Shown piece after piece: positions 3,263-58,200 of a stretch of DNA of 64,000 nucleotides. Position 1 is the stretch's first letter; each line of letters begins with the position of its first letter. The position numbers and the translations under genes were made by a program. The stretch comes from Acidobacteriota bacterium (GTDB taxonomy: Bacteria; Acidobacteriota; Vicinamibacteria; Marinacidobacterales; Marinacidobacteraceae), in the NCBI GenBank assembly GCA_022820545.1, contig JAJEFG010000108.1, forward strand, positions 4,122 through 68,121, given 5' to 3'. The notes beneath the pieces are model-generated. The model had not been told where the DNA came from and ran no database searches. It saw nothing but the letters and a program-made list of their open reading frames with translations.

Positions 3263-3960
3263 CCCGAACCCCTCCGCTGGTACCGGCGCCCGCGCGAGGC
3301 CGCGGAGCGGTTGCCCACCCGCGCACGCTGCCCGGCGAAGGAAGTCCGGAGCGCCCGCTTGATCCGCGCGATCCGGCGGCCCACGGAGGAAGCGCTGAGC
3401 GGCACCGCCCGCAGGCGCGCGATCTGCGGAATGGTGTAGAGGTCCCGAAAGTAGAGCTGAACCAGGAGCCGGTTCAGCGCGTGCTGCCGATCGTCCTGCG
3501 AGATCCGCCGCAGGACCGTCTCGACGCCCTCGTTCAGCTCGCGCTGCAGAACGGCCGCCTCCGGATCGTCAACGACGTCTTCGGGAGGACTCTCCGCCAG
3601 GGCGGCCTCGAGCCGCCAGATCTCCTCGGGCGGAAACGTCTCCTCGACGCTGTGCCGGTAGCGGTCGTGCCGGAACCGGTCCCGGAGGATGTTCTCCGCG
3701 ATCCGCTGGATGAAGACCTCGAACGCCTCCTCGCGGGTGCCGGCGAAACCGCGGATCACCCGGCGCCCGTCCGAGACGAGCCGCTCCATGACGTCCTGCG
3801 ACAGGTCGTCCAGGGCGCTGTCGTCCATCGGCTGCCGCCCCGCGAAGCGCGCGCGCAGGACCACTCCCAGAAGGGGCCGGCAGCGTCGGAACAGGACTCC
3901 CCAGAGGGGGTCGTCCGGACGCGCCGCGACGAGGCGGCGAATCAGCTCCCAGGAGTCCAT
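3259..3960 (-). CDS. RNA polymerase sigma factor, ECF (sigma-70 regions 2 and 4) family
   Basis: 233 aa with an ECF-like region 2 ('FEVFIQRIAENILRDRFR') and region 4 ('NRLLVQLYFRDLYTIPQIARLRAVPLSASSVGRRIARIKRAL'). It is convergent with glycerate kinase and has no adjacent anti-sigma gene downstream. Confidence 0.8.
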   Translation of the reverse strand: MDSWELIRRLVAARPDDPLWGVLFRRCRPLLGVVLRARFAGRQPMDDSALDDLSQDVMERLVSDGRRVIRGFAGTREEAFEVFIQRIAENILRDRFRHDRYRHSVEETFPPEEIWRLEAALAESPPEDVVDDPEAAVLQRELNEGVETVLRRISQDDRQHALNRLLVQLYFRDLYTIPQIARLRAVPLSASSVGRRIARIKRALRTSFAGQRARVGNRSAASRGRRYQRRGSG

Positions 3961-4046
3961 GAGCAGAGGGAGCCGGGGAGTCTATTGCGTCGTAACTGCT
4001 TCTGAACTCCTTTTTTTGGGGCTTGTTCCGAGTTCGTTACGCCACA

Positions 4047-4454
4047 TTACACCGGAGCGGCCACGCCTTGGCCGCCTCCTCTTCGCGGGGCGGATGCGAG
4101 CAGCGCGACCGTGGTCACGGCGGCCAGGACGCCGTCGGAGGCGGCGAACACCAGGAACAGCGGAGGGGAATCCCGGAGCAGGAAGTCCAGCACGAAGAGC
4201 AGGGCCCCGCCTCCCTTGAGCACGGGTCCCATGATCCAGATGTACCAGCGGTTCGCTTCCAGGTTCCTGAGGATCGCGAAGTACCCGAGGCCGACCGCGA
4301 GCGCGAAGAGCCCGTTCAGGTTCGCGTGGACCGGGAAGCGGGGCGGCTCGGTGCCGAACAGTTGCCGAACCTCCTCCAGCGCGAAGAGGAGCGCGCCGCC
4401 CAGGAGCACGTCGTAGACGCCGCTGACGACGACGACGCCGAGGAGCAACTTCAT
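4047..4454 (-). CDS. small integral membrane protein (about 4 TM), hypothetical; upstream of and co-oriented with the ECF sigma gene
   Basis: 135 aa, strongly hydrophobic segments (MKLLLGVVVVSGVYDVLLGGALLFAL..., GLFALAVGLGYFAIL..., GGGALLFVLDFLL..., LFLVFAASDGVLAAVTTVALLA). Confidence 0.5.
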   Translation of the reverse strand: MKLLLGVVVVSGVYDVLLGGALLFALEEVRQLFGTEPPRFPVHANLNGLFALAVGLGYFAILRNLEANRWYIWIMGPVLKGGGALLFVLDFLLRDSPPLFLVFAASDGVLAAVTTVALLASAPRRGGGQGVAAPV

Positions 4455-6661: not shown

Positions 6662-8428
6662 ATGAGGACCCTGGCCGCGCTGGCTCTCGTCCTGATCGCC
6701 GCCGCCGGAAGCTGCGGCCGCCGGGGTCCGCCGCTCGCTCCGCTTCAGGTGGACCCGGAAACGCCCCGGGTCCTGCCGCTCCGGCAGGAGAACGGCGCGG
6801 TCGTGGTGCGCTGGCACGCGCCCCGCCTCGACTCCGGGGGGGACCCCGCGGACCTGCGGCTGCGCCGGGCGATCGTGTCCTACCGGGTCCTGGACCTCCA
6901 CGCGCTCGCCGCCGAGGAGCGCGCCTCCCAGCGCCAGCCGCCGGAGGAAACGGACGAAGAGGACCCTGACGCCACCCCGTCCGGTGACGAGGACGCTGCC
7001 GAAGTTTCCGAACCGGAGAGCCCGGTGTCGGAGGAGCCGGCCGCGCCGGACACGGTGGCGCCCGAGACCGGAGAGCCCGCCCCCGGGGAAGAAGCGCCTT
7101 TGCCGGATGCCGGGCCCGCGGAGGCCGCCGAACCGGCGACGGAGGAACCGTCCCCCGAGGCGCCCGCCCCCGAGCAGCCGCCCGTAGCGACGGAGGAACC
7201 GTCCCCCGCCGGCGGGGCGCCCCCGGAGGAAGCGGAAGCGCAGCCGGAGCAGGAACCGGTGCCGGAGGGGGAACCGGAGCAGGACCCGGTGCCGGAGGGG
7301 GAACCGGAGCAGGACCCGGCAACCGACCCGGAGCCCGACGAGACCCAGGAAGAGCCGGACCCCGAAGCACCCGCCGGAGAGGAGCCCGGCGGTGAGACCC
7401 AGGAAGAGCCGGAGCCCGAGGCCGAGCCGGAACCCGAGGGCACCCTCCTCGACTACGAGGAACTCGAGTTCGAGGTGCTCTCCGAGATCGAGTCGGAAGT
7501 GCCCGGGGAGGAACAGGTCCTCGAGCTGCCGGTGGAACCGGACTGGATCGGCCGCCGCCTCGAGGTCACCGTCCGCTACGAGGCGCGCGGGGGCGCCAGC
7601 GAGGAGAGCGAACCCCAGTCCCTCGACGTCACCGGTCCGCTGCCGCTGGTGGAGGGGCTTCTTGTCGAGGTCGGGCCGCGCGAGCTGACCATCCGCTGGC
7701 AGGACCCCCGCGACGCCCTGGGCGAGGCGCTCCTGGCGGACCCCGTGTTCGAGGTCTTCCGGCGGCGCGGAGAGGATTCCGAGCGGGTGGGACGGTCCTT
7801 CGGCCCGAGCCAGACCGACGCCGGCGTCGTCTGGGGGGAGGAGGTCTGCTATCGCGCGCGGCTCGTGGTGGCGGGGGTCGCGGAAGAGCGGGTGATCCCC
7901 GATCCCGGACCCGTCGCGCCGCCCGGCGCCGAGGAGGACGAGGGCGCCGGCGAGCCTCCGGCTCCGGACGAAACCGGCGAGGCGGACGCCCCGGAGACAC
8001 CCGAAGCGGAACCCGGTGATTCCGAGTCCGGGGAGGAGCCGTGGACCCCGATCCCGGTCCGGGTCCCCGGCGCCGGAACCGGGGCGCTGAGCGTCGGACC
8101 GATGTCGGCCGAGGAATGCGTGGTTCCGGTGGACGTCTTCCCGCCGGTCCCGCCTTCGGACCTCCGCCTCTTCTGGCGCAGCGAGGCGACCGAACTCAGT
8201 TGGAGGGACTCGGCCTCCACCGACGTCGCCGGATATCACGTCTACCGCTCCGGACCGGCCGGCGCCGGCTTCCAGCGCCTCACGGAGTCGCTCGTGGAGC
8301 AGACGAGCTATACGGACGCGGAGCGCGATCCGCGGGCCGCCTATCGCTACGCCGTCACGGCGGTGGACGGCGCCGACCCGCCGAACGAGAGCCTGCCCTC
8401 CGACCCCCGCACCGCGAATCCGCGATAA
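6662..8428 (+). CDS. lipoprotein with a long acidic Pro/Glu-rich low-complexity region and C-terminal fibronectin-III-like domain(s), hypothetical
   Basis: Internal ATG (MRTLAALALVLIAAAGSC, lipobox-like) 35 bp after the hslU stop. Residues about 95-260 are dominated by E/P/A/D (EPEQDPVPEGEPEQDP...). The C-terminus reads '...LSWRDSASTDVAGYHVYRS...YRYAVTAVDGADPPNES', which is FN3-like. The track ORF (6428) overlaps hslU, so its N-terminal extension was rejected. Confidence 0.7.
   Translation: MRTLAALALVLIAAAGSCGRRGPPLAPLQVDPETPRVLPLRQENGAVVVRWHAPRLDSGGDPADLRLRRAIVSYRVLDLHALAAEERASQRQPPEETDEEDPDATPSGDEDAAEVSEPESPVSEEPAAPDTVAPETGEPAPGEEAPLPDAGPAEAAEPATEEPSPEAPAPEQPPVATEEPSPAGGAPPEEAEAQPEQEPVPEGEPEQDPVPEGEPEQDPATDPEPDETQEEPDPEAPAGEEPGGETQEEPEPEAEPEPEGTLLDYEELEFEVLSEIESEVPGEEQVLELPVEPDWIGRRLEVTVRYEARGGASEESEPQSLDVTGPLPLVEGLLVEVGPRELTIRWQDPRDALGEALLADPVFEVFRRRGEDSERVGRSFGPSQTDAGVVWGEEVCYRARLVVAGVAEERVIPDPGPVAPPGAEEDEGAGEPPAPDETGEADAPETPEAEPGDSESGEEPWTPIPVRVPGAGTGALSVGPMSAEECVVPVDVFPPVPPSDLRLFWRSEATELSWRDSASTDVAGYHVYRSGPAGAGFQRLTESLVEQTSYTDAERDPRAAYRYAVTAVDGADPPNESLPSDPRTANPR
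7261..7320 (+). repeat. perfect 30-bp tandem duplication inside the acidic lipoprotein gene (encodes PEGEPEQDPV x2)
   Basis: gccggagggggaaccggagcaggacccggt occurs twice in tandem (7261-7290 and 7291-7320), with a degenerate third copy just upstream. Confidence 0.8.
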
Positions 8429-8476
8429 GCGGCCGCGGCGCACACTGGCGGGCCGGCCAGCGGCCGTGAGCGCCTC

Positions 8477-8600
8477 GGAGCGCCGGCCTCCGGCCGGCAT
8501 CGCGCGGGAGCGCGAAACCCGCGCTGATGGCGCTGTCTCGGAGCGCCGGCCTCCGGCCGGCATCGCGCGGGAGCGCGAAACCAGCGCTGATGGCGCTCCG
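8477..8600 (+). repeat. two tandem copies (about 62 bp each) of a GC-rich two-hairpin intergenic repeat (REP-like family)
   Basis: ggagcgccggcctccggccggcatcgcgcgggagcgcgaaac(c/a)cgcgctgatggcgct repeated twice. Hairpin 1 is GCCGGCC-TCC-GGCCGGC and hairpin 2 is GCGCG-GGA-GCGCG followed by GAAAC. The same family recurs at seven other loci. Confidence 0.8.
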
Positions 8601-8727
8601 AGCTCCAGCCGTTCTCGCGACGGCCTGGAACGCCGCGTCACTCGTGCCGCCAACCGGTAGAATTGTGTCGGGGTTTGGGGACCTGGATTCCGGGCCGAAT
8701 TCCGGATTGACGAGGTGCCGGGCGCGC

Positions 8728-9375
8728 ATGCAGATCTTTCTTGACACCGCGAACGTTGACGAGATTTCGCGGGCCGCCGCGATGGGGCTCGTGGACGGGG
8801 TCACGACGAACCCGTCGCTCATGGCGAAGGAGACGGGCGACCCGCGGGAGATCCTGGCCGCGATCGCCGAAACGGTTTCCGGCGACGTCTCGGCGGAGGT
8901 CCTCTCGACCGACACCGCCGGGATGGTGGCCGAAGGCCGCGAGCTCGCGACCATCGCCCCGAACATCATCATCAAGTGCCCGCTGACCCCCGACGGCCTG
9001 CGCGCGGTCCGCGAGCTGAAGGAGGAGGGGATCCGGGTCAACGTGACCCTCTGCTTCAGCGTTCCGCAGGCGCTCTTCGCGGCGAAGGCGGGCGCCTACA
9101 TCGTGAGCCCCTTCGTCGGCCGGCTCGACGACATCTCCGCTCCCGGCATGCAGTTGATCGCGGACATCCGCGAGGTCTACGACAACTACGGCTTCGCCAC
9201 CCGGATCCTGGTCGCCAGCATCCGGAACCCCCTGCACGTCGTGGAGGCGGCGCGGCTGGGAGCCGACATCGCCACCATGCCCGCCAAGGTGCTCGACCTG
9301 CTCATCAGGCATCCGTTGACGGACATCGGCCTCGAGCGTTTCCTGAAGGACTGGGAGGCAGCGAGGGTCACCTGA
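8728..9375 (+). CDS. tal: transaldolase, short form (fructose-6-phosphate aldolase/Tal family)
   Basis: '[13 protein letters not shown]...GVTTNPSL...[32 protein letters not shown]...IVSPFVGR' is a classic short transaldolase. Start at the internal ATG; upstream residues of the track ORF overlap the repeat region. Confidence 0.85.
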
Positions 9376-9388
9376 TCCTCCGGATCGG

Positions 9389-10954
9389 GTGGCGCCGAAA
9401 TCCGAAGGGTCTCCGGACGCCTTCGCCGAACTCGAGGCGCGGAACCGCCGCGCCGAGGAAGGCGGGGGCGCCGCCCGGCTCGAGCGGCAGCGGCGTTCCG
9501 GCAGACTGACGGCGCGCGAGCGGATCGCGACCCTCGTCGACGCCGGGTCCTTCGAGGAGACCGGAAGACTGGTCGAGCATCGCTCGCGCGATTTCGGACT
9601 GGACGAGCAGCGCTATCCCGGGGACGGCGTCGTGACCGGCTACGGCCGGATCGACGGGCGCCTCGCCTACCTGTTCGCGCAGGACTTCACGGTTCTCGGC
9701 GGCTCGCTGAGCGAGGCGGTCGCGGAGAAGATCTGCCGGACCATGGACCTCGCGGTCCGCCAGGGCGCCCCCATCATCGGGCTGAACGACTCCGGGGGCG
9801 CGCGCATCCAGGAAGGGGTGGTCTCGCTCGCCGGATACGCCGACATCTTCCTGAGGAACACGCTGGCGTCGGGAGTGGTTCCGCAGATTTCGGCCATCCT
9901 CGGGCCCTGCGCGGGGGGCGCCGTGTATTCCCCGGCCATCACCGACTTCACGATCATGTCGCGCGGCACCAGCTACATGTTCGTGACCGGGCCGGACGTG
10001 ATCCGCGCCGTGACCCACGAGGAGGTCACGATGGAGGACCTCGGCGGCGCGGAGACCCACAACACGGTCTCGGGGAACGCGCACTTCCTGGGAGAGAACG
10101 ACGAGGACTGCCTCGACCTGATCCGGCAGCTCCTCTCCTTCCTGCCGTCGAACAACCTGGAGGAGCCGCCGCGGCGTCCCTCGGCGGATCCGCCCGACCG
10201 GGAGGTCCCGTCGCTCGACAGTCTCGTTCCGGAGGAACCCGACCGGCCGTACGACATCAAGGACCTGATCGGCGAAGTGGTGGACGACGGCGAGTTCCTG
10301 GAAGTCCAGGCGCTCCACGCCGGGAACCTGGTGGTCGGTTTCGCGCGGCTCGCCGGGGCCCCGGTGGGGATCCTCGCGAACCAGCCGGCGGTGCTGGCCG
10401 GCGTCCTGGACATCCAGGCTTCCGTGAAGGGCGCCCGCTTCGTCCGTTTCTGCGACGCCTTCAACATCCCGCTGATCACGTTCGAGGACGTGCCGGGCTT
10501 CCTGCCGGGGACCCAGCAGGAGTGGGGAGGCATCATCCGGCACGGGGCGAAGCTGCTCTATGCCTTCGCGGAGGCCACCGTTCCCAAGGTCACGGTGATC
10601 ACCCGCAAGGCGTACGGCGGCGCCTACTGCGTGATGGCGAGCAAGCACATCCGGACCGACCTCAACTACGCCTGGCCGAACGCCGAGATCGCGGTGATGG
10701 GGCCGGAGGGCGCCGTGAACGTCCTCTACCGGCGGGAACTCGAAAAGGCCGAGGACGCGGAGGCAGAGCGCGCCGCCCGGGTGGCCGCCTACCGCGAGCG
10801 CTTCGCGAACCCGTACGTGGCGGCGGAGCGGGGGTACGTGGACGAGGTCATCCCGCCGCGGGCCACCCGCCGGAAACTGACCGCCGCGCTCGCCTCGCTG
10901 GCCACCAAGCGCGACCGGAACCCTCCGAAGAAGCACGGGAACATCCCGCTCTGA
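9389..10954 (+). CDS. acyl-CoA carboxylase carboxyltransferase subunit (PccB/AccD5-like, fused CT beta/alpha)
   Basis: 521 aa; '[16 protein letters not shown]...[12 protein letters not shown]...[14 protein letters not shown]...[14 protein letters not shown]' is typical of propionyl-CoA/methylmalonyl-CoA carboxyltransferase. Confidence 0.85.
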
Positions 10955-10981
10955 GTCCATGCCCGGACCGCCGGCCGCCTG

Positions 10982-12496
10982 ATGTTCCGCCGCGTCCTCG
11001 TCGCCAACCGGGGTGAGATCGCGGTCCGGATCATCCGGGCCTGCCGCGACCTCGGCGTCTCGCCGGTGACGGTCCACTCCGAGGCCGACCGGGACAGCCT
11101 GCACGTGCGGCTGGCCGACGAATCCTTCGAGGTGGGGGGAGCGGCCTCCCGCGACAGCTACCTGAACGGCGAGCGGGTCCTCGAGGCGGCGCGGGCCATG
11201 GAGGCGGAGGCCCTTCATCCGGGGTACGGGTTCCTGGCGGAGAACGGCGATTTCGCCGCGCGCTGCGCCGAGCGCGGCCTCGTCTTCGTGGGACCGCCTC
11301 CCGAGGCCATGCGCCGGATGGGGGACAAGGCCGCGGCTCGGGAGACGGCGGTCGAGGCCGGCGTTCCGGTCGTCCCGGGCTCGGACATCGTCGCGGGGAA
11401 GGACGCCGAGCGCGCCGCCCCGGGGATCGGGTTCCCGCTGCTCATCAAGGCCGCGGCCGGGGGCGGGGGGATGGGAATGCGCCTCGTGCGGGAACCTTCG
11501 GACTTCCCGGACTCCCTCCGGGAGGCGCAGTCCGAAGCGGAGGCGGCCTTCGGCGACGCCCGGGTGTTCCTCGAGCGCTTCGTGGAGAACCCGCGCCACG
11601 TGGAGATCCAGGTGTTCGGCGACGACTTCGGGTCCGTGGTTCACCTCGGGGAGCGCGACTGTTCGATCCAGCGCCGGAACCAGAAGCTCCTCGAAGAGAG
11701 CCCCTCACCCGCGATCTCGCCGGAACTCCGGGCCGGGATGGGAGAGGCGGCCGTGCGGCTCGCGCGCGGCGCCGGCTACCGGAACGCCGGGACCGTGGAG
11801 TTCCTGCTCGATCCGGAAGGGCGCTTCCATTTCCTCGAAATGAACGCGCGGCTCCAGGTCGAGCATCCGGTCACCGAACTCGTATCGGGGTTGGACCTCG
11901 TCGCGCTCCAGTTGCGGATCGCCGCCGGCGAGCCGCTCGGCTTCACGCAGTCCGAGGTCTCGCTCAGCGGCGCGGCGATCGAGCTCCGGATCACCGCGGA
12001 GGATCCGTTCGCCGGCTTCGTCCCGGCCACCGGCCGTATCCGGGAGTTCCGTCCCCCCGCCGGTCCGGGGGTCCGCTGCGACGCCGGGATCGTTTCGGGC
12101 AGCGTGGTCTCCCCGCACTACGACCCCCTGCTCGCCAAGATCATCGTTTCCGGGCCCGACCGGGAAACGGCCCGGAAACGGGCCATCCGGGCCGTCCGGG
12201 AGACCCGGCTCGTCGGAGTCGCCTCGACCCTGCCCTTCTTCGAGCGGGTGCTGGCCAGCGCGCCCTTCCGCAGCGGGGACTTCGATACCTCGTTCGTCTC
12301 CGCGCACTGGCCCGCGCTCAGCCGGGACGGCGAGGACGGCGGCCGTGGGACGCATGCCGAACTGGCGCCCCTGGCGCTCGCGGCGGCGGCCGCCGAGCTG
12401 TGGCGGCGGGAAGGCTCGAACCCGCCCGCGTCCGGCGCGCCCCCGTCCCGGTGGCGGCTCGCCGGCGTCGCGGAAGCGCATCGCGAACGGCTCTGA
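10982..12496 (+). CDS. accC: biotin carboxylase subunit of acyl-CoA carboxylase
   Basis: 'MFRRVLVANRGEIAVRIIRACRDLG...HPGYGFLAEN...GPPPEAMRRMGDKAAARE...' ATP-grasp biotin carboxylase; 504 aa. Confidence 0.9.
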   Translation: MFRRVLVANRGEIAVRIIRACRDLGVSPVTVHSEADRDSLHVRLADESFEVGGAASRDSYLNGERVLEAARAMEAEALHPGYGFLAENGDFAARCAERGLVFVGPPPEAMRRMGDKAAARETAVEAGVPVVPGSDIVAGKDAERAAPGIGFPLLIKAAAGGGGMGMRLVREPSDFPDSLREAQSEAEAAFGDARVFLERFVENPRHVEIQVFGDDFGSVVHLGERDCSIQRRNQKLLEESPSPAISPELRAGMGEAAVRLARGAGYRNAGTVEFLLDPEGRFHFLEMNARLQVEHPVTELVSGLDLVALQLRIAAGEPLGFTQSEVSLSGAAIELRITAEDPFAGFVPATGRIREFRPPAGPGVRCDAGIVSGSVVSPHYDPLLAKIIVSGPDRETARKRAIRAVRETRLVGVASTLPFFERVLASAPFRSGDFDTSFVSAHWPALSRDGEDGGRGTHAELAPLALAAAAAELWRREGSNPPASGAPPSRWRLAGVAEAHRERL

Positions 12497-13020
12497 TGCG
12501 GCGCACCCTCTCGCTCGACGGCCAGGACCGCCGGGTCGAGGTACGGGCGGAGGCGGGCGGTGTCCTGCGGGTCGGGATCGAGGGCGGCGACGGCGAACTG
12601 GTCGCTCGCCAGACCCCCGGTGGCTGGACGGTCACGAACGGCCGCCGCACGGTCGAGGCCGGCGTCACCGGCGAGCGGACCGGCGAGCTGGTGGTCCAGA
12701 TCGCCGGACACACCTGGCGGCTCGCAACCGGCCGGAACGCGGCCGGCGGCTCCCGCCGTAGCGGTTCCGCGGCCGGCGGGGCGGCGGGTGGACGCGCCGA
12801 GGTGCGGACCCCGATGCCGGGCAAGGTGGTACGCGTCCTGCGGGAAGAGGGCGAGCAGGTCGCCGCCGGCGACGGTGTGCTGGTGTTCGAGGCCATGAAG
12901 ATGCAGAACGAGGTCCGGGCTCCGGAGAGCGGGGTCATCGCTAACATGAGGGCTGCCGCGGGAACTCCCATGGAGGGCGGCGAACTACTGTTCGTCGTGG
13001 AGCCCGCGGAATCTGCGTGA
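12496..13020 (+). CDS. biotin carboxyl carrier protein (biotin/lipoyl attachment domain)
   Basis: C-terminal 'GDGVLVFEAMKMQNEVRAPESGVI' biotinyl-lysine motif (EAMKM). The ATG overlaps the accC TGA (ATGA-type coupling). N-terminal part is low-complexity. Confidence 0.75.
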   Translation: MRRTLSLDGQDRRVEVRAEAGGVLRVGIEGGDGELVARQTPGGWTVTNGRRTVEAGVTGERTGELVVQIAGHTWRLATGRNAAGGSRRSGSAAGGAAGGRAEVRTPMPGKVVRVLREEGEQVAAGDGVLVFEAMKMQNEVRAPESGVIANMRAAAGTPMEGGELLFVVEPAESA

Positions 13021-16000
13021 CTGCTTCCGCTCCGAACCGCCCGAACCGCCGGTTCCGGCTGGTGTTGGTGGGCGCCGCCGCCGCCTCGGCGTTGTCCCTC
13101 GGGGTGATCTTCTGGGTCGTTTCGAGCCTGGATCCCGAGCGTCTGGGCGCCTATGTCACCGGCCGGCTCAGCGCCGTGCTGGGCCGCCCGGTCGCGGCGA
13201 GCGGCTTCGAGTTCTCGCTTCCGCGGGGGGAGTTCGTCCTTCGCGGACTCCAGCTCGGGAGGGAGCCCACCGACATCGGTCCGCCGCCCCCCGCCTTTTC
13301 GATCGACCGGATCCGCGGCCGCCTGAGCTGGCGTTCGCTGTTTCCGGCGCGCCTCCACCTCGAGAGCCTCGATGTCGAGGGGGTGGGCCTCTGGGGTCTC
13401 GACGACGGTGGCAGACCGCAACCGGAGTCCGCCCCCCTGGGACCCGCCATCGAGGCGGTGGCTGCCCGGCTTTCGTTCTCTTCGAACCGGATATCGGTGT
13501 CCGGAACCACGATCGGGTACCGGAACCGGCCGACGCCGTGGGAAGTCCGCGCCGACGACGTCGCCTTCAGCCTCCGGACCGGCGAGGAGGGAGGGGTGGA
13601 CGGCGAAATCCGGTCCGGTTGGGGCGTGATCCGCCTCTGGGAACGCCCGGATCTTCCGATGGCGCTGTCGTCGGACTTCCGGATCCGGGAGAACGACCTG
13701 CACATCGACTTCCTCGAGCTGCGCTCCGACCTGCTCGAGGTGCGCTTCGACGGAACCATGGACATGGCCAACGATCTCGACGGCCGCCTCCGGATGGTCG
13801 GAACCGGGGACGCCGGCGGTCTGGGCCGATTCCTGTTCGAGTTCGAGGGCATGGACACCGAGGGGGATCCCTGGCTCCAGTTCGACGGAACGGCGGGGTT
13901 CCAGGAGAACGGTCTGGCGATCGACGGTGACTTCGCATTGCCGCGGAGCCGTTTCTTCGGCGTTCCCCTGCGGGACTGGACGGGAGTCGTGCACTGGGAT
14001 CCCGAGCGCGTCGAGATCCTCTCCTCGCGGGGACTCGCGTCCGAGGGACCGGCCACCCTGCGGCTGCTCCAGGTGCAGCCGCGGGAGGAGAACCCGGCGG
14101 AGATCCTCCTGAGCGTCCGCGACGGAGCGCTGGCGCCCTCCCTCGAGGGCGTCTTCGGAACGCCGACCACGATCCGTTCGCTGGTGACGCTCGACGCGGA
14201 CCTGCGCATGCCCCTCGCCGATCCGGGGCTGATGACCGGGACCATCCAGGCCACCGGCCTGATGCCGGACGCCACGGCGCCGGGAGAGCTGCCGCTCGGC
14301 TTCGAGGCCGACCTGCGGATGGATGACACGGCGACCGACATCCTCCGCGTCGTCCTGGAAGGCGAGGCCTTCCGCGGCTCCATGGAAGGCCGCTATCCCC
14401 GAGCCGGGGACGCGAGCATCACGGCGACCGCGCTCGCGGGAGAATCGGCCGAGGCCGACGCGATGCAGCAGGAGCTGCGGCGGGTGCTCTTCGCGGAGGA
14501 TCCCGAGACGACGTACTGGGACGTCGCGGGGGCCGGGGGGTTCGAGGGCGTCGTCCGCGGCCGGTGGCCCGATCTCGTGCTGGAGGGAGAGGTCGAGGGC
14601 CAGACGATGCGCTTCTCCACGATCGACACGGAAACCCTGATCGCGACCGGGAGGATCGTGCGCGACGCGATCTTCCTCGACAGCCTGAACGCGCGGTTCG
14701 GCGAGGGGACGATCTCCGCCTCGGGAGTCTTCGACCGCGCCGCCGTCGACTATCCGGACATGGAGTTCGACGCCGACTGGGAGGCGTGGGACGCCCGGGA
14801 GATCATCGATTTCCTCGAGTGGGACCTCGAGGCGGACGGAACCACGAGCGGCCGCAGCCACACCGTGCGGCGGGACGAGCGCTACACGGGAGGCGGGTCC
14901 GCGACCGGTTCCGACGGGCACGTCCTCGAACAGCCGTTCGACGAGGTGGCCATCACCTGGGACATGGACGGCGACACGGCCCGGCTGGCCCCCATGAGCG
15001 GGACGTTTCGGGAAGGCACGGCCGAAGGGACCCTCGACATCGGCCTCGTGGACTGGGAGATGGAGGGTCTCGTCACCGGCAGCGACTACCCCCTGACGCC
15101 CGGCCTGGCGCCCGAGTGGATTTCCATCCGCTCCGATTTCCGCCTCGAGGTCGGCGGCGACCTCCTGGTTCCGGAACTCCGCCTCGAGGCGCGGGTGCCG
15201 AACGCCGCGGTCCTCGGCCTGTCCCTCGGCCCCGGCGACATCCGGGGGTCGGTCTACGGCGAGGACTTCGAGGGCAGCGGGACGCTGGATTCGGGCGCCG
15301 CGTCCTTCCGGATGCAGGGACGGGTCCCGCTCGGCACCGACGGCGCCGGCACCGTCACGATCCGGGGCGTGGACGTCGCGCCCATCCTCTTCGACGCGCC
15401 GGCCGAACGCGGGTTCTCCATCGTGGTCGGCGGGTCCGGAGACTTCCACATCGAGGATCCGCTCGACGAATGGATGACCGGGGCCGCGACGCTCGAGACC
15501 CTGAGGATCACCGCGCCGGACTTCGTGGCCGAGACCGGCGGGCCGACCACCGTCCGCCTGCAGGACGCGCGGGTGCACGTCGCGGGTCTCCGTCTCCTGC
15601 ATGCCGACAGCCAACTGGCGCTCGAGGGGTCCATCGGGCTGGATGACGAGCTCCTCGATCTGTCGCTGCTGGGACAGACGTCGCTGCTCGCCACCGCGCC
15701 CTTCGTACCCTGGCTTGCCGCGGACGGCGCGTTCGGCCTCGAAGCCGCGGTGGTCGGCCCCTGGACCGAGCCGGAAGTCCTGGGCACCGGGACGATCCGG
15801 AACGGCTCCTTCCGCGTCGAGGGGTTTCCGCACGCCCTGACCGACGTGGAGGGCACCGTCGATTTCGATCAGCGGACGCTGCGGATCGCGGAGGTCATCG
15901 GCCGCATGGGCGGCGGCGAGGCCGTCGTCTCCGGCTCGATCTCGGTCGAGGACGCGGAGTTCGCCGCCACCGACCTGCGCGTCCAGCTCACCGGCTCCAG

Positions 16001-16931
16001 CCTTCGCTATCCGAGTGACCTGAGCGCGACCGTGGACGCCGACCTGCGGCTCCTCGGCGATCAGAGCGGCCGCCTCCTCACCGGGGAGGTGATCCTCGAC
16101 GAGGCGGTATGGAGCCGCGAATACGAGTTCTTCGCGAGTATCCTCGCCGACGTCAACAGCGTCGCGCGCCCCGAGGAGACCGAATCGAGCGGGTTCCTGG
16201 ACGAGCTGCGGATGGACATCCAGGTGGAGACGGACTCGCCCTTCGCGGTCCGGAACTCCATCTTCCAGCTCGACGCCGCGGCGGACTTCGGCCTCCGGGG
16301 GACCGCCGGCTCCCCCGCGGTGCTGGGGCGCGCCGACCTCGTCGGGGGCGAGGTGTACTTCAGCGCGCACCGGTTCCAGATCGCCTCCGGGCGCGCCGAC
16401 TTCATCGATCCCGAGGGGATCGAACCGGTGTTCGAGATCGAGGCCGAGACCAGCGTCCGCAGCTACCGGGTGCGGCTCGCCGCGACGGGAACGGCGGAGC
16501 AGATCGACGCGAACCTCAGCTCCGAGCCGCCCCTCCGGGAGGCCGACATCCTCCGGCTCCTCGCCGGCGCCCCGGAGCAGGATCTTCTGAGGGCGGCGAG
16601 CGACGACGAACTCGCGGCGGCCTCCGCGGCGAGCCTGCTGAGCCAGCAGCTCAGCAACATGATCGGCCGGCGCGCCGGCCGGGTGTTCGGGATCGACCGG
16701 GTCAGCATCGATCCCTTCATGATCGGCCGTTTCAGCAATCCGACCGCGAGGGTCACGCTGGGCAAGCAGGTGACCCGCGATCTCAACGTCCGCTACTCCT
16801 CGAGCCTGTCGGACGCCGAGGAGTCCATCATCGTGGTCGAGTACACCCCGAGCGGCCCCGTCTCCTGGATCTTCTCGCGGGACCAGGATGGCTCGCTGGG
16901 GGTGGACGTCCGGTTTCATCGGAGTTTCTAG
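13017..16931 (+). CDS. tamB: translocation and assembly module protein TamB-like (DUF490 family), 1304 aa
   Basis: N-terminal signal-anchor (RFRLVLVGAAAASALSLGVIFWVV), very long beta-rich repetitive body, and a C-terminal DUF490-like region ('...RVTLGKQVTRDLNVRYSSSLSDAEESIIVVEYTPSGPVSWIFSRDQDGSLGVDVRFHRSF'). GTG start overlaps the BCCP stop. Confidence 0.8.
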   Translation: MTASAPNRPNRRFRLVLVGAAAASALSLGVIFWVVSSLDPERLGAYVTGRLSAVLGRPVAASGFEFSLPRGEFVLRGLQLGREPTDIGPPPPAFSIDRIRGRLSWRSLFPARLHLESLDVEGVGLWGLDDGGRPQPESAPLGPAIEAVAARLSFSSNRISVSGTTIGYRNRPTPWEVRADDVAFSLRTGEEGGVDGEIRSGWGVIRLWERPDLPMALSSDFRIRENDLHIDFLELRSDLLEVRFDGTMDMANDLDGRLRMVGTGDAGGLGRFLFEFEGMDTEGDPWLQFDGTAGFQENGLAIDGDFALPRSRFFGVPLRDWTGVVHWDPERVEILSSRGLASEGPATLRLLQVQPREENPAEILLSVRDGALAPSLEGVFGTPTTIRSLVTLDADLRMPLADPGLMTGTIQATGLMPDATAPGELPLGFEADLRMDDTATDILRVVLEGEAFRGSMEGRYPRAGDASITATALAGESAEADAMQQELRRVLFAEDPETTYWDVAGAGGFEGVVRGRWPDLVLEGEVEGQTMRFSTIDTETLIATGRIVRDAIFLDSLNARFGEGTISASGVFDRAAVDYPDMEFDADWEAWDAREIIDFLEWDLEADGTTSGRSHTVRRDERYTGGGSATGSDGHVLEQPFDEVAITWDMDGDTARLAPMSGTFREGTAEGTLDIGLVDWEMEGLVTGSDYPLTPGLAPEWISIRSDFRLEVGGDLLVPELRLEARVPNAAVLGLSLGPGDIRGSVYGEDFEGSGTLDSGAASFRMQGRVPLGTDGAGTVTIRGVDVAPILFDAPAERGFSIVVGGSGDFHIEDPLDEWMTGAATLETLRITAPDFVAETGGPTTVRLQDARVHVAGLRLLHADSQLALEGSIGLDDELLDLSLLGQTSLLATAPFVPWLAADGAFGLEAAVVGPWTEPEVLGTGTIRNGSFRVEGFPHALTDVEGTVDFDQRTLRIAEVIGRMGGGEAVVSGSISVEDAEFAATDLRVQLTGSSLRYPSDLSATVDADLRLLGDQSGRLLTGEVILDEAVWSREYEFFASILADVNSVARPEETESSGFLDELRMDIQVETDSPFAVRNSIFQLDAAADFGLRGTAGSPAVLGRADLVGGEVYFSAHRFQIASGRADFIDPEGIEPVFEIEAETSVRSYRVRLAATGTAEQIDANLSSEPPLREADILRLLAGAPEQDLLRAASDDELAAASAASLLSQQLSNMIGRRAGRVFGIDRVSIDPFMIGRFSNPTARVTLGKQVTRDLNVRYSSSLSDAEESIIVVEYTPSGPVSWIFSRDQDGSLGVDVRFHRSF

Positions 16932-16937
16932 CCCACC

Positions 16938-19724
16938 GTGGTGGAAGCACCCCGCACCGTCATGGGCGCGGCCTGGACGGCGCACCGGCCGGTTCTCCTT
17001 GCCGGCATCCTGTCGGCAACGTTCGCGGTCGCCGCCGGCGGGCAAACCGTGACCGACCAGCCCGAGGATCCGCTCTCGCAGCGCGTGGACTCGGTCGTGG
17101 TCCGCTGGGCCGACGGGAGCGCCGAACCGGTGCCCGACGAGGTCTCCCGTCTGATTTCGGTGCGTCCGGGAACCCGTTTCCGCCCGCTGGTCGCGCGCCA
17201 GTCGGTGAAACAGGTGTTCGCGCTCGGCCGTTTCCGCGATGTCCGGGTGCGCTCGGAGGAAGCGCCGGGCGGGGACCTGCGGCTCATCTTCGAACTCGAC
17301 CCCATACCCGGCATCGCCCGGCTGAGCGTCGAAGGCGCTCCCCCCGGCGAGGACCTGAACCTCATCGCCACGCTCGGCCTCGAGGCGGGGGAGCCCGTCC
17401 CCGACGACCTCCCGGTCCGGGCGGAGGCCGGCGAAGACTGGCTTCGCTCGCGCGGCTACGTGAGCGCGGAGGTGAACATCCAGAGCGTTCCGGAGGGCCG
17501 GGATGCGCTGCTCGAGGTGACGGTGGCCGCCGCCGAGCGGGCGCGGGTGGCCTCGATCGAGGCCCTCGGGGTGGACGATGAACTGGGCCGCGACCTCATC
17601 TCGGCGCTGGGGATCTCGGGGGACGATCCCTGGATCGAAGCGGAGGTCACGGCGCGGCTGCCGGAGGTGGAGGCAAGGCTCCGCGACCGCGGGTTCCTGT
17701 TCGGCACGGCAACCCTCGATTGGAGGCCGACCGGCGCGGGGGACGTCCAGGTCTTCCTGTCCGTGGACCGCGGCCCCGAAGTCGCCCTGGAGGTGCAGGG
17801 GTTCGGCGCGGCGCAGGGAGACGCGGAGGGCGTGGTGGCCGGGCTTTCCGGACAGACCCTGACGCTCGACGCGATCGAGGCCGCCCGGCAGGAGCTTCTC
17901 GACGAACTCCGGCGCGAGGGACGGCGGGAGGGCGCCGTCACGGTGGAGAGCGTCGAGAGCGCGGACGGTGGAGACCGGACCTTCGTGTTCTCGGCCGACC
18001 CGGGCCCCCGATACGTCGTCGGCGCCGTCTCGTCGGAGGGTGCGCCCCCGGAGGAAGCGGACACCGTCGCCGAAGTCCTGCTGCCGCTCCGGCCCGGCCG
18101 CCCCTACCGTGAGGAGGAGTGGCAGGCGCTGACCGAGAGCGTGCGGCGGACGCTCCGCGGCCTGGGATACTTCCAGGCCGAGGTCGTGCCGCTCCCGCCC
18201 CAGCCCGGGGAGCCCGGGGACGATGGCCTTTCGCTCGATCTCCGGGTCCGCATCGAGCCGGGTCCACTCGCCTCCGTCGCGGCGGCGCGTTTCGAGGGGA
18301 GTGACGCGTTCACGGACGCCGAGCTGGCGGAGGTGGCGGCCATCGTGCCCGGTGCGCCCTACGTGGCCGAAGAGATCGTGAACGCCCGGGAGGACCTGGA
18401 GGCGTTCCACCGGAACCGGGGATACCTGGAGGCGGTGGTGGAGGTCGAGGCTCCGGTCGATCCGGTCACTCACGAGGCGGAGGTCGTCTTCCGGATCCGC
18501 CCCGGGAGCTACTTCACGGTCGGGGGCATCATCGTGGCGGGCCTCGGCACCACGCGGGACTCCGTGATCCGCTCCCGTCTCCCCTTTGCGGAGGGGGACG
18601 CGCTGGGAAGCGGCGATCTGCTGGAAGTGCGCCGGCGTCTCGTGTCCATGGGGATCTTCCGGAGCGTGGACGTGAATCTCCTGGAACCCGAGGAGCCGAT
18701 CAGCGAACGCAACGTGCTGATTCGGGTGGTGGAGGGCCCGCGCACCAGCATCGGCTACGGCGCCGGCTACAGCGAGCGCGAGCAGGTTCGGGGAGAGGGC
18801 GAATGGACCCGGAACAACCTCTTCGGGATGGGCCACACCCTGAGCCTGTTCGGCCGGTTCTCGCTCAGGGGCACGCGCATGGTGGCCACCTACCGGGGGG
18901 CGGAGAGCGTGGAGGGCGACATCCCCATCTTCGTGAGCGCGTTCCGGGAGTCGCAGGACCGCGAGAGTCTCGACTTCATCCGCTCCGGCATCGGCGTCCA
19001 GGTGACCCGCAGGATCCTGGGGCGGAACGTGTTCCTGCGCTACGACCTGACCACCAGCGAGCTGTTCGACCTGAAGATCAACCCGATCCAGATCGATCGC
19101 AACTTCGCCGACAACCTCTGGCTCTCGGCGGTCTCGGCGTCGGTGGTCACCGACACCCGCGACGATCCCGTGGACCCCCGCCGGGGCCGGTTCGGAATCG
19201 TGGACGTGGAGTGGTCCTCGGCGCTCCTCAGGTCCCGGGCGCCCTTCCTGAAGGGGTTGGGGCAGCAGTACCTGTTCTTTCCCATCGGCCAGCAGGTCGT
19301 CCTCGCCGTCAGCGGGCGGCTCGGCCTCGCGTGGACGCTGGGTGCGGACCAGCCGGCCCTGGTTCCGATCACCGAGCGGTTCTTCGCCGGGGGAGCCACC
19401 AGCCTTCGCGGCTACAAGCTGGACCGCGCCGGACCGCTCGATCCGAGCGGATACCCGGTCGGCGGGAACATGCTCATCGTGGGGAACCTCGAGGTCCGGT
19501 TCCCGATCATGGGAAGCCTGCGGGGCGCCGTGTTCTCGGACCACGGCGGGGTCTACAGCGAGGTCGCCTCGTTCCGCCTGCCGGACCTGGGGCACAACGT
19601 CGGCGCCGGGCTCCGCTGGAACACCCCGCTGGGACCGCTCCGGTTCGACTACGGAGTCCGGTTGGGCGACATCGGCGACGCCCCGCGCGGCCAGTGGCAC
19701 TTCACCATCGGCCACGCGTTCTAG
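16938..19724 (+). CDS. bamA: outer membrane protein assembly factor BamA/Omp85 family (POTRA repeats + beta-barrel)
   Basis: Signal peptide, then multiple POTRA-like segments; the C-terminal barrel ends with an aromatic residue 'GQWHFTIGHAF'. 'FFAGGATSLRGY', typical of the Omp85 barrel, is present. The ATG at about 16962 (MGAAW...) may be the true start. Confidence 0.85.
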   Translation: MVEAPRTVMGAAWTAHRPVLLAGILSATFAVAAGGQTVTDQPEDPLSQRVDSVVVRWADGSAEPVPDEVSRLISVRPGTRFRPLVARQSVKQVFALGRFRDVRVRSEEAPGGDLRLIFELDPIPGIARLSVEGAPPGEDLNLIATLGLEAGEPVPDDLPVRAEAGEDWLRSRGYVSAEVNIQSVPEGRDALLEVTVAAAERARVASIEALGVDDELGRDLISALGISGDDPWIEAEVTARLPEVEARLRDRGFLFGTATLDWRPTGAGDVQVFLSVDRGPEVALEVQGFGAAQGDAEGVVAGLSGQTLTLDAIEAARQELLDELRREGRREGAVTVESVESADGGDRTFVFSADPGPRYVVGAVSSEGAPPEEADTVAEVLLPLRPGRPYREEEWQALTESVRRTLRGLGYFQAEVVPLPPQPGEPGDDGLSLDLRVRIEPGPLASVAAARFEGSDAFTDAELAEVAAIVPGAPYVAEEIVNAREDLEAFHRNRGYLEAVVEVEAPVDPVTHEAEVVFRIRPGSYFTVGGIIVAGLGTTRDSVIRSRLPFAEGDALGSGDLLEVRRRLVSMGIFRSVDVNLLEPEEPISERNVLIRVVEGPRTSIGYGAGYSEREQVRGEGEWTRNNLFGMGHTLSLFGRFSLRGTRMVATYRGAESVEGDIPIFVSAFRESQDRESLDFIRSGIGVQVTRRILGRNVFLRYDLTTSELFDLKINPIQIDRNFADNLWLSAVSASVVTDTRDDPVDPRRGRFGIVDVEWSSALLRSRAPFLKGLGQQYLFFPIGQQVVLAVSGRLGLAWTLGADQPALVPITERFFAGGATSLRGYKLDRAGPLDPSGYPVGGNMLIVGNLEVRFPIMGSLRGAVFSDHGGVYSEVASFRLPDLGHNVGAGLRWNTPLGPLRFDYGVRLGDIGDAPRGQWHFTIGHAF

Positions 19725-19730
19725 CGGCTT

Positions 19731-19800
19731 GGAGCGCCGGCTTCAGCCGGCACGCGCTTGCGCGGCAGCGCACGGCGCGACCCCACGGGGCAGGAGCGGC
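19731..19800 (+). repeat. REP-like two-hairpin intergenic repeat (family copy E)
   Basis: ggagcgccggcttcagccggcacgcgcttgcgcggcagcgcacggcgcg... ; hairpin 1 is GCCGGC-TTCA-GCCGGC (compensatory variant of the family stem). Confidence 0.6.
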
Positions 19801-20026
19801 CCCCGCGCCTCGCCCGGGATCCGGCAACCGGCCCCGTCTGTGCCAGACTGCCCCCGTGCCCGGACACGGCCGAATCCCGGCGAGAGGCCTGAACTCCCAC
19901 GAGCGCCGCTTCCGCTGGTCTGTCCGCCTCGTATTCGGCTTCGTTCTGCTGCTTGGCCCCGTCCCCGCTGTTTCGGGAGGCGGTGGGGCGGGCGGGCGCG
20001 GGCAGGTTCAGGCGCGAACGGAAGCC

Positions 20027-20602: not shown

Positions 20603-20837
20603 GTCCTTCGGTCCCGCCGGGGCGATCCGAAGGTCCCGTCCGCGGGGAAGGGAACCCTGGGTTCGGGTGCGGCGTTATTCCTGTACCCATGGGTGAGGAG
20701 GAGTGAGTCACCGCACCTGCGGGTGACCCAATGTTCCGCTCGGAGACGGAGCGGTTGGAGCAGTGAGGATGGCACGCTGCGTGCTTACCGAGCTATAGAC
20801 ACAAAGTAGGCCAACAAGGAGATATCTGGAGGGCGTT
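20603..20837 (+). promoter_or_regulatory. long structured 5' leader/promoter region of the sigma-70 gene with several hairpins and an AT-richer -10/RBS region
   Basis: Hairpins tccttcgg...ccgaagg, gtcaccgcacctgcgggtgac and ccgctcggagacggagcgg. The AT-richer 'gagctatagacacaaagtaggccaacaaggagatatctggagggcgttATG' gives an SD (GGAGGG) 6 nt before the ATG. Confidence 0.3.
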
Positions 20838-21872: not shown

Positions 21873-21883
21873 CCGCGCGCTTC

Positions 21884-21930
21884 GGAGCGCCGGCCTCCGG
21901 CCGGCATCGCGGCCGAAGGCCGCGAAACGC
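21884..21930 (+). repeat. REP-like two-hairpin intergenic repeat (family copy B)
   Basis: ggagcgccggcctccggccggcatcgcggccgaaggccgcgaaacgcc ; hairpin 2 is GCGGCC-GAA-GGCCGC followed by GAAAC. Confidence 0.7.
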
Positions 21931-22083
21931 CTCCTCCGTGGCAACAACGCGGCCCCTCAGTTTCGCGGCGCCTGGCGCCCGGCACGCGCGCCTCGCCGCG
22001 CTGGCGATGCGTGTCGCCTCGCTGCGCTCGGCGATGCCGACCAGAGGTCGGCGCTCCGTGCCGGAACCGACCCGCCGGATACG

Positions 22084-23703: not shown

Positions 23704-23716
23704 TCCTCGGGATACC

Positions 23717-25765: not shown

Positions 25766-25784
25766 CCCGGATGGCGCACCGGCT

Positions 25785-25845
25785 GGGAACGCCGGTCTCC
25801 AGACCGGCACCGCGGCGCTCCGCGCCGCGCACCATGCGGACCCGG
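25785..25845 (+). repeat. REP-like two-hairpin intergenic repeat (family copy H)
   Basis: gggaacgccggtctccagaccggcaccgcggcgctccgcgccgcgcacc ; hairpin 1 is GCCGGTC-TCCA-GACCGGC and hairpin 2 is GCGGCGC-TCC-GCGCCGC. A cccggatgg motif just upstream is also seen flanking copies C and D. Confidence 0.6.
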
Positions 25846-54311: not shown

Positions 54312-54368
54312 TGGGAGCGCCGGTCTTCAGACCGGCACGCGGCCCGTTGCGCCGCAGAGAGCGTAGGG
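54312..54368 (+). repeat. REP-like two-hairpin intergenic repeat (family copy F, 'TAGGG-tail' subtype)
   Basis: gggagcgccggtcttcagaccggcacgcggcccgttgcgccgcagagagcgtaggg ; hairpin 1 is GCCGGTC-TTCA-GACCGGC. Confidence 0.6.
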
Positions 54369-54405
54369 ACGTTCCGCCGCATAGCGCGACGGTTCGGAGC
54401 GCCGG

Positions 54406-54470
54406 CCTCTGGCCGGCATCGCTCCCCACCGGGGAGCGAAACATGCCCTAATGTTCAACCCGGATGGCGG
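54406..54470 (+). repeat. REP-like two-hairpin repeat (family copy C), immediately upstream of the hydantoinase-like gene
   Basis: ggagcgccggcctctggccggcatcgctccccaccggggagcgaaacatgccc...caacccggatgg ; hairpin 2 is GCTCCCC-ACC-GGGGAGC followed by GAAAC. Confidence 0.7.
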
Positions 54471-55955: not shown

Positions 55956-55975
55956 GATCGCGGCGCCCCCGGCTC

Positions 55976-56047
55976 GGAGCGCCGGCCTCTGGCCGGCATC
56001 GCTCCCCATCGGGGAGCGAAACACGCCTGGTCGTTCAGCCCGGATGG
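55976..56047 (+). repeat. REP-like two-hairpin repeat (family copy D), immediately downstream of the hydantoinase-like gene; near-identical to copy C
   Basis: ggagcgccggcctctggccggcatcgctccccatcggggagcgaaacacgcc...cagcccggatgg, a direct repeat of copy C. Confidence 0.7.
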
Positions 56048-58075: not shown

Positions 58076-58122
58076 GCCAACCATCCTGGCGGGCGACACC
58101 CGCCAGGATCGCACCGCCGGCC

Positions 58123-58200
58123 GGGAGCGCCGGCCGGTTCTCGCGGTAGCGGCCTTCAGACCGGCACCGCTGGGCGCAGCCCAGCGAAGAGCGCGTAGGG
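58123..58200 (+). repeat. REP-like intergenic repeat (family copy G, divergent, 'TAGGG-tail' subtype)
   Basis: gggagcgccggccgg...ggccttcagaccggcaccgctgggcgcagcccagcgaagagcgcgtaggg ; hairpin 2 is GCTGGGC-GCA-GCCCAGC. Confidence 0.5.

Follow-up and report, generated by a model that had tools for sequence, protein, structure and literature searches.

A dispersed, recombining two-hairpin repeat at gene 3′ ends in marine and sponge-associated Acidobacteriota

Why does a GC-rich sequence that folds into two hairpins recur behind genes in a 64,000-nucleotide stretch of Acidobacteriota DNA (contig JAJEFG010000108.1, positions 4,122 to 68,121; in the following, the window), which has a G+C content of about 71%? 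The original prediction, made from the sequence alone, held these copies to be a structured element transcribed in 3′ untranslated regions, as opposed to a randomly oriented repetitive extragenic palindrome (REP) or miniature inverted-repeat transposable element (MITE). The explanation we favor, with moderate confidence, joins parts of both ideas: a dispersed, non-autonomous, recombining palindrome, similar to REPs and to bacterial interspersed mosaic elements (BIMEs), which is kept at gene 3′ ends and would be transcribed there as a barrier or terminator at the end of the mRNA.

The window was scanned, filters off, with a covariance model whose 96 non-identical source copies came almost entirely from other genomes. 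All nine copies of the original prediction are present and score 27–71 bits. The number given, at least nine, is exceeded, as the + strand has 10 copies and the − strand one clear copy (22009–22059); the statement that all copies share one orientation is therefore incorrect. The pattern GAGCGCCGG-N3-12-CCGGCA matched seven times in the window, always on the + strand, compared to 0.03 matches expected from dinucleotide shuffles, and the direct-repeat families D1, D2 and D7 of a repeat finder coincide with the reported loci. At least six subfamilies are represented. Each + strand copy lies 3–48 nt past the stop codon of a + strand gene, three of them in convergent regions. The hairpin variants listed earlier had been read correctly, and the recurring minus-strand peptide MPAGGRRSE is indeed encoded by the reverse complement of hairpin 1. 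The individual copies are as follows.

Copy 1: 8475..8537, + strand, first unit of a 63-nt tandem duplication, as predicted (62.3 bits); core TCGGAGCGCC-(GGCC TCC GGCC)-GGCATCGC-(GCG GGA GCG)-CGAAAC, tail CCGCGCTGATGGCGCT; starts 48 nt past the stop at 8428.
Copy 2: 8538..8600, + strand, second unit of the tandem (61.6 bits); the tail closes with GGCGCTCC, which is complementary to the 5′ GGAGCGCC.
Copy 3: 19729..19785, + strand, divergent subfamily (27.4 bits); hairpin 1 GCCGGC-TTCA-GCCGGC, followed by CACGCG...GCGCACGGCGCGAC; starts 6 nt past the BamA stop at 19724.
Copy 4: 21882..21930, + strand (69.8 bits); hairpin 2 GCGGCC-GAA-GGCCGC, then GAAAC; starts 11 nt past the stop of a sigma-70 gene at 21872.
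Copy 5: 22009..22059, − strand (56.9 bits, E-value 4e-12); hairpin 1 GCCGACC-TCT-GGTCGGC, in which a G-C to A-T change is compensated; hairpin 2 CGAGC-GCA-GCGAG with tandem G·A; tail-to-tail (convergent) with copy 4, 24 nt upstream of an amidase start and antisense to both neighboring genes.
Copy 6: 25766..25838, + strand, GGAACGCC subfamily (50.4 bits); 5′ extension CCCGGATGGCGCACCGGCT starting directly past the stop at 25765; hairpin 1 GGTC-TCCA-GACC, hairpin 2 GCGGCGC-TCC-GCGCCGC, then GCAC; convergent region, with an ABC-F gene on the − strand ending at 25923.
Copy 7: 54312..54393, + strand (36.7 bits); starts 3 nt past the stop at 54308; hairpin 1 GGTC-TTCA-GACC, hairpin 2 imperfect, tail AGAGAGCGTAGGG...CGCCGCATAGCGCG.
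Copy 8: 54394..54467, + strand (70 bits); previously given as 54406–54470, its true start being 54394; hairpin 2 GCTCCCC-ACC-GGGGAGC, then GAAAC; tail ends in CCCGGATGG; 88% identical to copy 9 across 78 nt (the 54390/55970 pair of the repeat finder).
Copy 9: 55974..56047, + strand (71 bits); starts 18–20 nt past an amidohydrolase stop at 55955; convergent region, with a VWA gene at 56077–57018 on the − strand.
Copy 10: 58122..58200, + strand (38.8 bits); previously given as 58123–58200; hairpin 1 broken by a foreign 19-nt repeat; GGGAGCGCCGG, insert CCGGTTCTCGCGGTAGCGG (58134–58152), CC-TTCA-GACCGGCACCGC, hairpin 2 GCTGGGC-GCA-GCCCAGC, AAGAGCGCGTAGGG.

The conserved unit reads (T)CG-GAGC-(GCCGGYC loop GRCCGGC)-AT-(CGC NNNN(N) loop (N)NNNN GCG)-AAAC and is about 50 nt long. 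Its left edge is sharp, conservation beginning approximately 6 nt before GAGCGCC, and on the right follows a weak, C-rich, subfamily-specific tail of about 25–45 nt. Hairpin 1 is nearly constant, while hairpin 2 combines a constant base with a hypervariable, always paired top. Other subfamilies have substitutions (GGAGC to GGAAC; CATCGC to CACCGC or CACGCG; GAAAC to GCAC or AAGAGCGCGTAGGG). Single copies fold as two hairpins; the folding energy is about −30 to −33 kcal/mol for RNA and about −20 for DNA, and the reverse complement does equally well in either form. The unit is pseudo-dyad symmetric about its central AT, and the strand with the G/A-rich loop differs between the two hairpins: 28 of 65 distinct hairpin-2 triloops are GNA, almost all closed by C-G, and hairpin-1 loops are pyrimidine-rich on that same strand. 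One subfamily keeps a tandem G·A inside hairpin 2 while the adjoining pairs covary. Both the loop asymmetry and the tandem G·A are compatible with RNA and with single-stranded DNA hairpins alike. Three further structural candidates were rejected. A rut-like site was suggested by the 3′ flank, in which GAAAC is followed by C-rich sequence (46% C vs. 25% G in the first 20 nt), but the effect is mild and accounted for by the subfamily tails. A long-range closing stem between 5′ GGAGCGCC and 3′ GGCGCTCC, giving a cloverleaf-like fold, exists in some copies of one subfamily only, and minimum free energy folds of 26 extended copies were inconsistent. Finally, CGAAAC and CTGATG in copies 1 and 2 recall a hammerhead or other small ribozyme, but the motif order around hairpin 2 does not fit the hammerhead core and CTGATG is subfamily-specific.

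The compensatory changes reported for both hairpins are upheld on larger samples. Among 117 pattern-selected copies, 68 different hairpin-2 sequences occur, nearly all perfectly paired. An alignment of 96 sequences has standard pairs in 94.4% of cells (81.4% in column shuffles), 158 double-change cells (64 in shuffles) and a covariation score of 0.252 (0.072 in shuffles); none of 500 shuffles reached these values, and pairing falls to 26–37% when the partner is shifted by one to three columns. Since hairpin 1 is fixed by construction in this set, copies which had not been selected by pattern were examined separately. In these, four positions of hairpin 1 have changed in pairs (C-G to T-A; G-C to A-T in two cases; C-G to G-C). 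In 135 model-aligned copies, an alignment fitted to the model and hence leaning toward structure, 95.6% of cells are paired compared to 78.4% in shuffles, and both sides have changed at 10 of 15 pairs, namely four of seven in hairpin 1 and six of eight in hairpin 2. We conclude that both stems are under pairing constraint.

How do such paired differences come about, and what kind of element carries them? Adjacent copies on opposite strands are all in “+−” arrangement with their tails inward, never “−+”, whatever the arrangement of the genes and even between divergent ones. Tandem arrays comprise 2–7 units with periods of 63–118 nt and lie in sense after stop codons, among them arrays of 7 × 118, 7 × 84, 4 × 102 and 3 × 93 nt. 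In the metagenome-assembled genome (MAG) jk18x1bz, a doublet of approximately 222 nt and a unit of approximately 350 nt occur at many loci in both orientations, and these composite units adjoin another module of about 190 nt. Truncated GGAGCGCC(GG) precedes 31 of 295 full copies at a distance of 9–14 nt, while a control window gave 13 of 295. Either hairpin can be interrupted by a foreign 19-mer, CCAGTTCTCCCGGTGGGGG, which enters hairpin 1 at GCCGG^CC, and the interrupted variant of copy 10 recurs with identical junctions in two other genomes (L013 and L095). These inverted doublets, arrays, mosaics, nested insertions and the replacement of variants described below are REP/BIME-like, contrary to the distinction from such repeats drawn in the original prediction.

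Two other sequences were noticed among the copies. CCAGTTCTCCCGGTGGGGG, which is highly conserved and present in the same MAGs as the two-hairpin element, is elsewhere the terminal inverted repeat of a miniature element of approximately 75 nt, with inverted pairs about 37 nt apart; in addition, it occurs in arrays, spaced by about 71 and 98 nt; sites of this family are 58134–58152 in the window, L060 6913, L103 1438–1791/6135, L075 6700, L009, L059, L013, L095, L061 and L066. Between units, a motif CCCGGATGGCG(C) or ...GCCGCATGGCGCC occurs (window 25766–25783, 54455–54467, 56035–56047, and many loci), often followed by CCGGCT(T/G)GGA(A/G)CGCC of the next unit, and behaves like a mosaic linker comparable to BIME linker motifs.

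Related genomes allowed a comparison of orthologous sites. In one case a site is filled in one genome and empty in the other: in L092 (OZ219815), a mosaic of approximately 350 nt with two copies (3746–4106) lies between two genes which abut in the window (approximately 593–643, − strand). This mosaic lies between two copies of a 9-bp direct repeat, GTCAATT(G/C)C, in which the stop/start junction is duplicated. The repeat could be a target-site duplication, or else the window site could be a deletion between short repeats. At seven or eight other syntenic pairs, with flanks 82–94% identical, both genomes have the site filled, yet they differ there in variant, copy number or orientation. L065 and L079, for instance, are approximately 94% identical in their flanks but differ in hairpin 1 (GGTC-TTCA-GACC vs. 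GGCC-TCT-GGCC) as well as hairpin 2 (TCCCC/GGGGA vs. CGACC/GGGAG). L001 and L069 each carry three units, of which the first differs in subfamily while the second and third are nearly identical. Conversely, at loci whose flanks are beyond alignment, copies of one subfamily in the window and in SB0668_bin_14 are 95–98% identical. These comparisons indicate that most of the paired differences were passed on or exchanged in whole modules, within a set of at least a dozen old subfamilies, rather than arising by stepwise compensation in place. The family is a dispersed, recombining, non-coding palindromic repeat which is gained and lost between related genomes. This bears on RNA discovery based on covariation, as strong “compensatory” statistics can come from a recombining modular DNA repeat and alone are no proof of an RNA fold.

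To determine the distribution of the family, species-representative genomes were scanned with the hairpin-1 pattern in 8-kb blocks. At least 107 blocks in at least 10 (about 12) MAG species contain the pattern, and among the matches listed all blocks come from marine or sponge-associated Acidobacteriota MAGs (several Vicinamibacteria chromosomes, “Ca. Marinacidobacterium” and the bins SB0668_bin_14, SB0661_bin_8, jk18x, p16x and RHO1). The covariance model matched 252 times in 0.77 Mb of MAG blocks. Further, 69 metagenome contigs of the Joint Genome Institute (JGI) contain the hairpin-1 pattern, whereas viral contigs gave no match, so that a viral origin was rejected. The window itself is identical to scaffolds of the metagenomes KELL22-1 in the European Nucleotide Archive (ENA); an exact look-up of a 100-aa window protein found two other contigs, both identical to the window. 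It is also syntenic with part of the Vicinamibacteria MAG OZ219815 at about 82% identity. Rfam, which had been proposed as a check, gave no match at the gathering score in the whole window, and a permissive search around copies at two loci found chance-level matches only (best: RT-13, 24 bits vs. a gathering score of 69). No tRNA or tmRNA genes were found in the window. The two-hairpin family is confined to a clade of marine and sponge-associated Acidobacteriota (Vicinamibacteria and MAGs of the “Ca. Marinacidobacterium” type), in which it had not been described, and it has no counterpart in Rfam. While much work has been done on REP-like repeats of Proteobacteria, we know of nothing comparable described for these uncultured Acidobacteriota.

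The position of the copies relative to genes was evaluated with a home-made ORF caller based on the G+C content of third codon positions (GC3), which is adequate at this G+C content but imperfect; in the window, gene calls were checked against Pfam matches and ENA gene calls. The copies are almost all intergenic, and a few calls “inside genes” are attributable to the crude caller. Single copies in co-directional regions are sense in 25 and antisense in 10 cases, and 21 single copies lie in convergent regions compared to four in divergent ones. In co-directional regions of the MAG loci, the copy nearest to the upstream stop codon is sense in 42 of 50 cases; independent metagenome contigs gave 23 sense to 5 antisense, and in combination 65 of 78 such copies (about 83%) are sense. 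Within 60 nt of gene 3′ ends, the nearest copy has the same orientation as the gene 55 times and the opposite orientation 14 times, while at 5′ ends there is no preference (14:17). The median distance from stop to element is 18–31 nt, and often just 2–9 nt. Among the stop codons next to elements, TAG is marginally enriched (33 of 65 vs. 36% background). The original statement that every copy is sense at a gene 3′ end is largely right as a strong tendency of about 83%, but it is not a rule. Beyond the window as well, the two orientations are unequal and covariation is well above that of shuffles.

Replication was considered as the cause of this bias and rejected. No clear switch of orientation was seen on three closed or near-closed chromosomes (sparse data), and the bias is present for genes on the locally dominant strand (35:7) as well as for those on the minority strand (7:1), so that orientation tracks transcription and not a proxy of replication. 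The element is retained at gene 3′ ends with a transcription-linked orientation bias. Other signals of transcription were scarce in the 40 kb scanned (8001–28000 and 44001–64000). Terminator-like sites, i.e., a hairpin followed by a T run, were absent from all gene ends; the two segments contained four and six such sites (6.8 and 7.3 in shuffles), all of them inside genes, and sigma-70-like promoters had no match. Thus, the host does not seem to use the canonical promoter and terminator signals scanned for.

The favored explanation would combine these observations as follows. The element multiplies by tandem duplication and is also present in tail-to-tail inverted doublets and in mosaics with other small repeats, and one variant takes the place of another at a given site as a whole module. 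Positioned directly after the stop codon, it would be transcribed as the end of the upstream mRNA, where two stable stem-loops (about −30 kcal/mol) could block 3′–5′ exonucleases and/or stop or pause transcription, in a stretch of the genome whose gene ends lack canonical hairpin-plus-U terminators. The unpaired GGAGC, AU and GAAAC together with the constant hairpin 1 may be the orientation-specific part, read by a protein such as a transposase or recombinase or an RNA-binding factor, and hairpin 2 would need only to be a stable stem. Selection against copies which disturb promoters and 5′ leaders may add to the orientation bias.

Precedents for most of these properties exist. REPs lie mainly downstream of ORFs, between unidirectional and convergent genes; they form inverted dimers and clusters with heterogeneous stems and loops, head-to-tail arrangements being rare; a GTAG or CGTC tag, unpaired and at the hairpin foot, marks their classical superfamilies; and they have been proposed to be transcribed and to serve as stabilizers or terminators at mRNA 3′ ends (Di Nocera et al., PMC3733652). 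With the REP, BIME and REPIN families of E. coli, Pseudomonas and Stenotrophomonas (SMAG), which are mobilized by REP-associated tyrosine transposases (RAYTs), our family has in common that it consists of short, GC-rich extragenic palindromes in very high copy number, situated downstream of ORFs, with inverted dimers, clusters, mosaics and paired stem changes. It differs in that each unit joins two unlike hairpins in a fixed pair, the first constant and the second hypervariable, that inverted dimers are tail-to-tail only, in the strong sense bias at stop codons, and in its Acidobacteriota host.

Several points weigh against this explanation. Transcription and the role at the mRNA 3′ end are the part which we infer, and which probably applies as it was proposed for REPs. 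A positive sign of an RNA fold of the sense strand is missing in the alignments: only about 0.6% of cells are of the G·U type, T·G and C·A are equally rare in hairpin 1 (three each in 1533 cells), and, as described, both strands fold equally well. Pairing therefore does not tell RNA from DNA, and covariation, which the original prediction had used as evidence for a folded RNA or DNA, does not favor RNA. Head-to-tail arrays are common here but rare in classical REPs. At the foot of the hairpins there is no GTAG or CGTC tag, the flanks being GGAGC, AT and GAAAC; GTAG occurs only in some subfamily tails, 3′ of hairpin 2. Membership in the classical GTAG/CGTC superfamilies hence fails on the tag. 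A RAYT-like ORF was not found in a scan for the HxH...YxxNP motif across 1.4 Mb of loci plus the window, i.e., a few percent of each genome. About 17% of the stop-proximal copies are antisense, and the home-made gene calls on which such counts are based contain errors.

What else could explain the data? One tentative reading shifts the emphasis from the repeat to the signal: an orientation-dependent, sequence-specific 3′-end signal of a clade without canonical intrinsic terminators, in which a dedicated protein would read hairpin 1 and its flanks and terminate, process or protect the transcript. Hairpin 2 would then be an exchangeable stability clamp, and copies would be spread and renewed by recombination with each other. 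We consider this unlikely on present data; if it were true, the “repeat” would double as the standard gene-end punctuation of the clade. A related background is known from high-GC bacteria such as mycobacteria, where hairpin-only (“I-shaped”) or conserved-sequence terminators occur. These share with our family the GC-rich stem-loops without a U tract at gene ends and the paucity of canonical terminators; here, in contrast, the sequence is conserved across genera and behaves as a dispersed repeat. The copies are not canonical intrinsic terminators, since their stable hairpins are followed by GAAAC and a C-rich flank instead of a U tract, and a terminator scan detected none of them.

Closest to the original prediction is a dedicated cis-acting structured RNA, i.e., a factor-dependent terminator, an mRNA-stability element or a small RNA from the 3′ untranslated region, selected gene by gene and neither mobile nor recombining. 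This would account for the 65:13 ratio of sense to antisense next to stops, the very short distance to the stop and the orientation which follows the gene, for strong covariation in both stems with conserved unpaired GGAGC, AU and GAAAC, for the GNA triloops (28 of 65) on the sense strand and the tandem G·A kept amid covarying neighbors, and for gene ends without canonical terminators. Nevertheless, it seems doubtful. Antisense copies directly upstream of gene starts (22009–22059 in the window, and L092), inverted doublets even between divergent genes and arrays of up to seven units are not expected from it, nor are foreign repeats nested in hairpins and then propagated, whole variants swapped at orthologous sites, or near-identical copies at unrelated loci and in unrelated genomes. 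Neither a G·U excess nor a strand asymmetry in mismatches was found, and there was no Rfam match.

Still less credit is due, in our view, to a purely selfish miniature mobile element, MITE- or REPIN-like and without host function, whose bias would stem from purging from promoters and from target choice, e.g., a preference for existing hairpins or copies as insertion sites, or single-stranded DNA becoming accessible through transcription. The filled site in L092 with its 9-bp direct repeat opposite an empty window site, the truncated GGAGCGCC(GG) upstream of 31 of 295 copies (13 of 295 in the control), the foreign 19-mer received at GCCGG^CC of hairpin 1, the multi-copy composite units, and the avoidance of divergent, promoter-containing regions all fit such an element. 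On the other hand, single units have no consistent terminal inverted repeats or target duplications and no transposase was found nearby. Sites stay filled across genomes 82–90% identical, and the sequence is far better conserved between genera than neutral DNA; this persistent occupancy and conservation suggest constraint beyond selfish spread. A site acting at the DNA level for a chromosomal protein (gyrase, a nucleoid protein or a recombinase) or a cruciform signal unrelated to transcripts is very improbable, as it gives no obvious reason for following the direction of the neighboring gene or sitting a few nucleotides from the stop, even though stem pairing is strictly Watson-Crick, mismatch spectra are symmetric, the two strands are equally well folded as DNA, the unit is pseudo-dyadic about its central AT and E. 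coli REPs bind gyrase and IHF.

Membership in other known systems was checked as well. MITEs, Correia elements and the Neisseria mosaics of intergenic mosaic elements (NIME) and dRS3 are likewise small non-coding intergenic repeats with nesting and possible terminator-like hairpins, and both the filled/empty site with its 9-bp direct repeat and the 19-mer family with real terminal inverted repeats resemble them. However, the two-hairpin unit has a sharp left edge at −6 without a matching inverted right end, and no target-site duplication of fixed length. Integron attC sites are also structured sense sites after ORFs with conserved ends and a variable paired center. Here, RYYYAAC/GTTRRRY cores are absent, the ends being GGAGCGCC and GCGAAAC, and there is no integrase in the window; the copies are flanked by housekeeping genes (BamA, sigma-70, transaldolase, cytochrome oxidase) and not by cassettes, and tandem arrays and inverted doublets occur. 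Hairpin 2 with GAAAC resembles the ends of type I repeats of CRISPR (clustered regularly interspaced short palindromic repeats), which also form tandem arrays, but the inter-repeat segments are themselves conserved (window, L020/L044), most copies are solitary and no cas genes were seen.

The family is a useful case in that a constant hairpin is joined with a hypervariable, always paired one, that its gene-following sense bias is unusually strong and that whole modules are swapped. In practice, the covariance model can be used to mask these repeats in MAG annotation, where they cause spurious ORFs such as MPAGGRRSE, and to mark likely transcript ends.

Two other hairpin-like sequences in the window were noted. 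At 54478–54515, TTCGGCGCCGGCCCCGCCGGCC resembles a decayed remnant of hairpin 1, although the covariance model gives no score; it is located directly upstream of the Shine-Dalgarno sequence AGGAGG and the ATG (54516) of the amidohydrolase gene, and an old two-hairpin copy may now serve as the 5′ leader of this gene. A small hairpin at 33181–33214, GCCGGC-GAAA-GCCGGC preceded by TAGGGCGCTAC, is a weak model match (10.9 bits) and possibly a member of a different family of small palindromes.

Besides the repeat, three regions of the window deserve mention. Gene 6662–8428, which has no Pfam match, contains in-frame repeats with a period of 12/18 nt at 7233–7440 (CCGGAGCAGGAACCGGTGCCGGAG...), encoding a Pro/Glu-rich low-complexity segment. 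Across the cytochrome oxidase cluster (COX1, COX3, COX4_pro) at 44000–54000, the G+C content falls from approximately 0.72 to approximately 0.65–0.67 while GC3 stays above 0.9, which reflects the amino acid composition of membrane proteins and not foreign DNA. Finally, the GC3 caller called no gene between BamA and the sigma-70 gene (19785–20838), but a + strand ORF at 19901–20602 has a weak SurA-like N-terminal match below the Pfam cut-off and may be a gene for a periplasmic chaperone following bamA.

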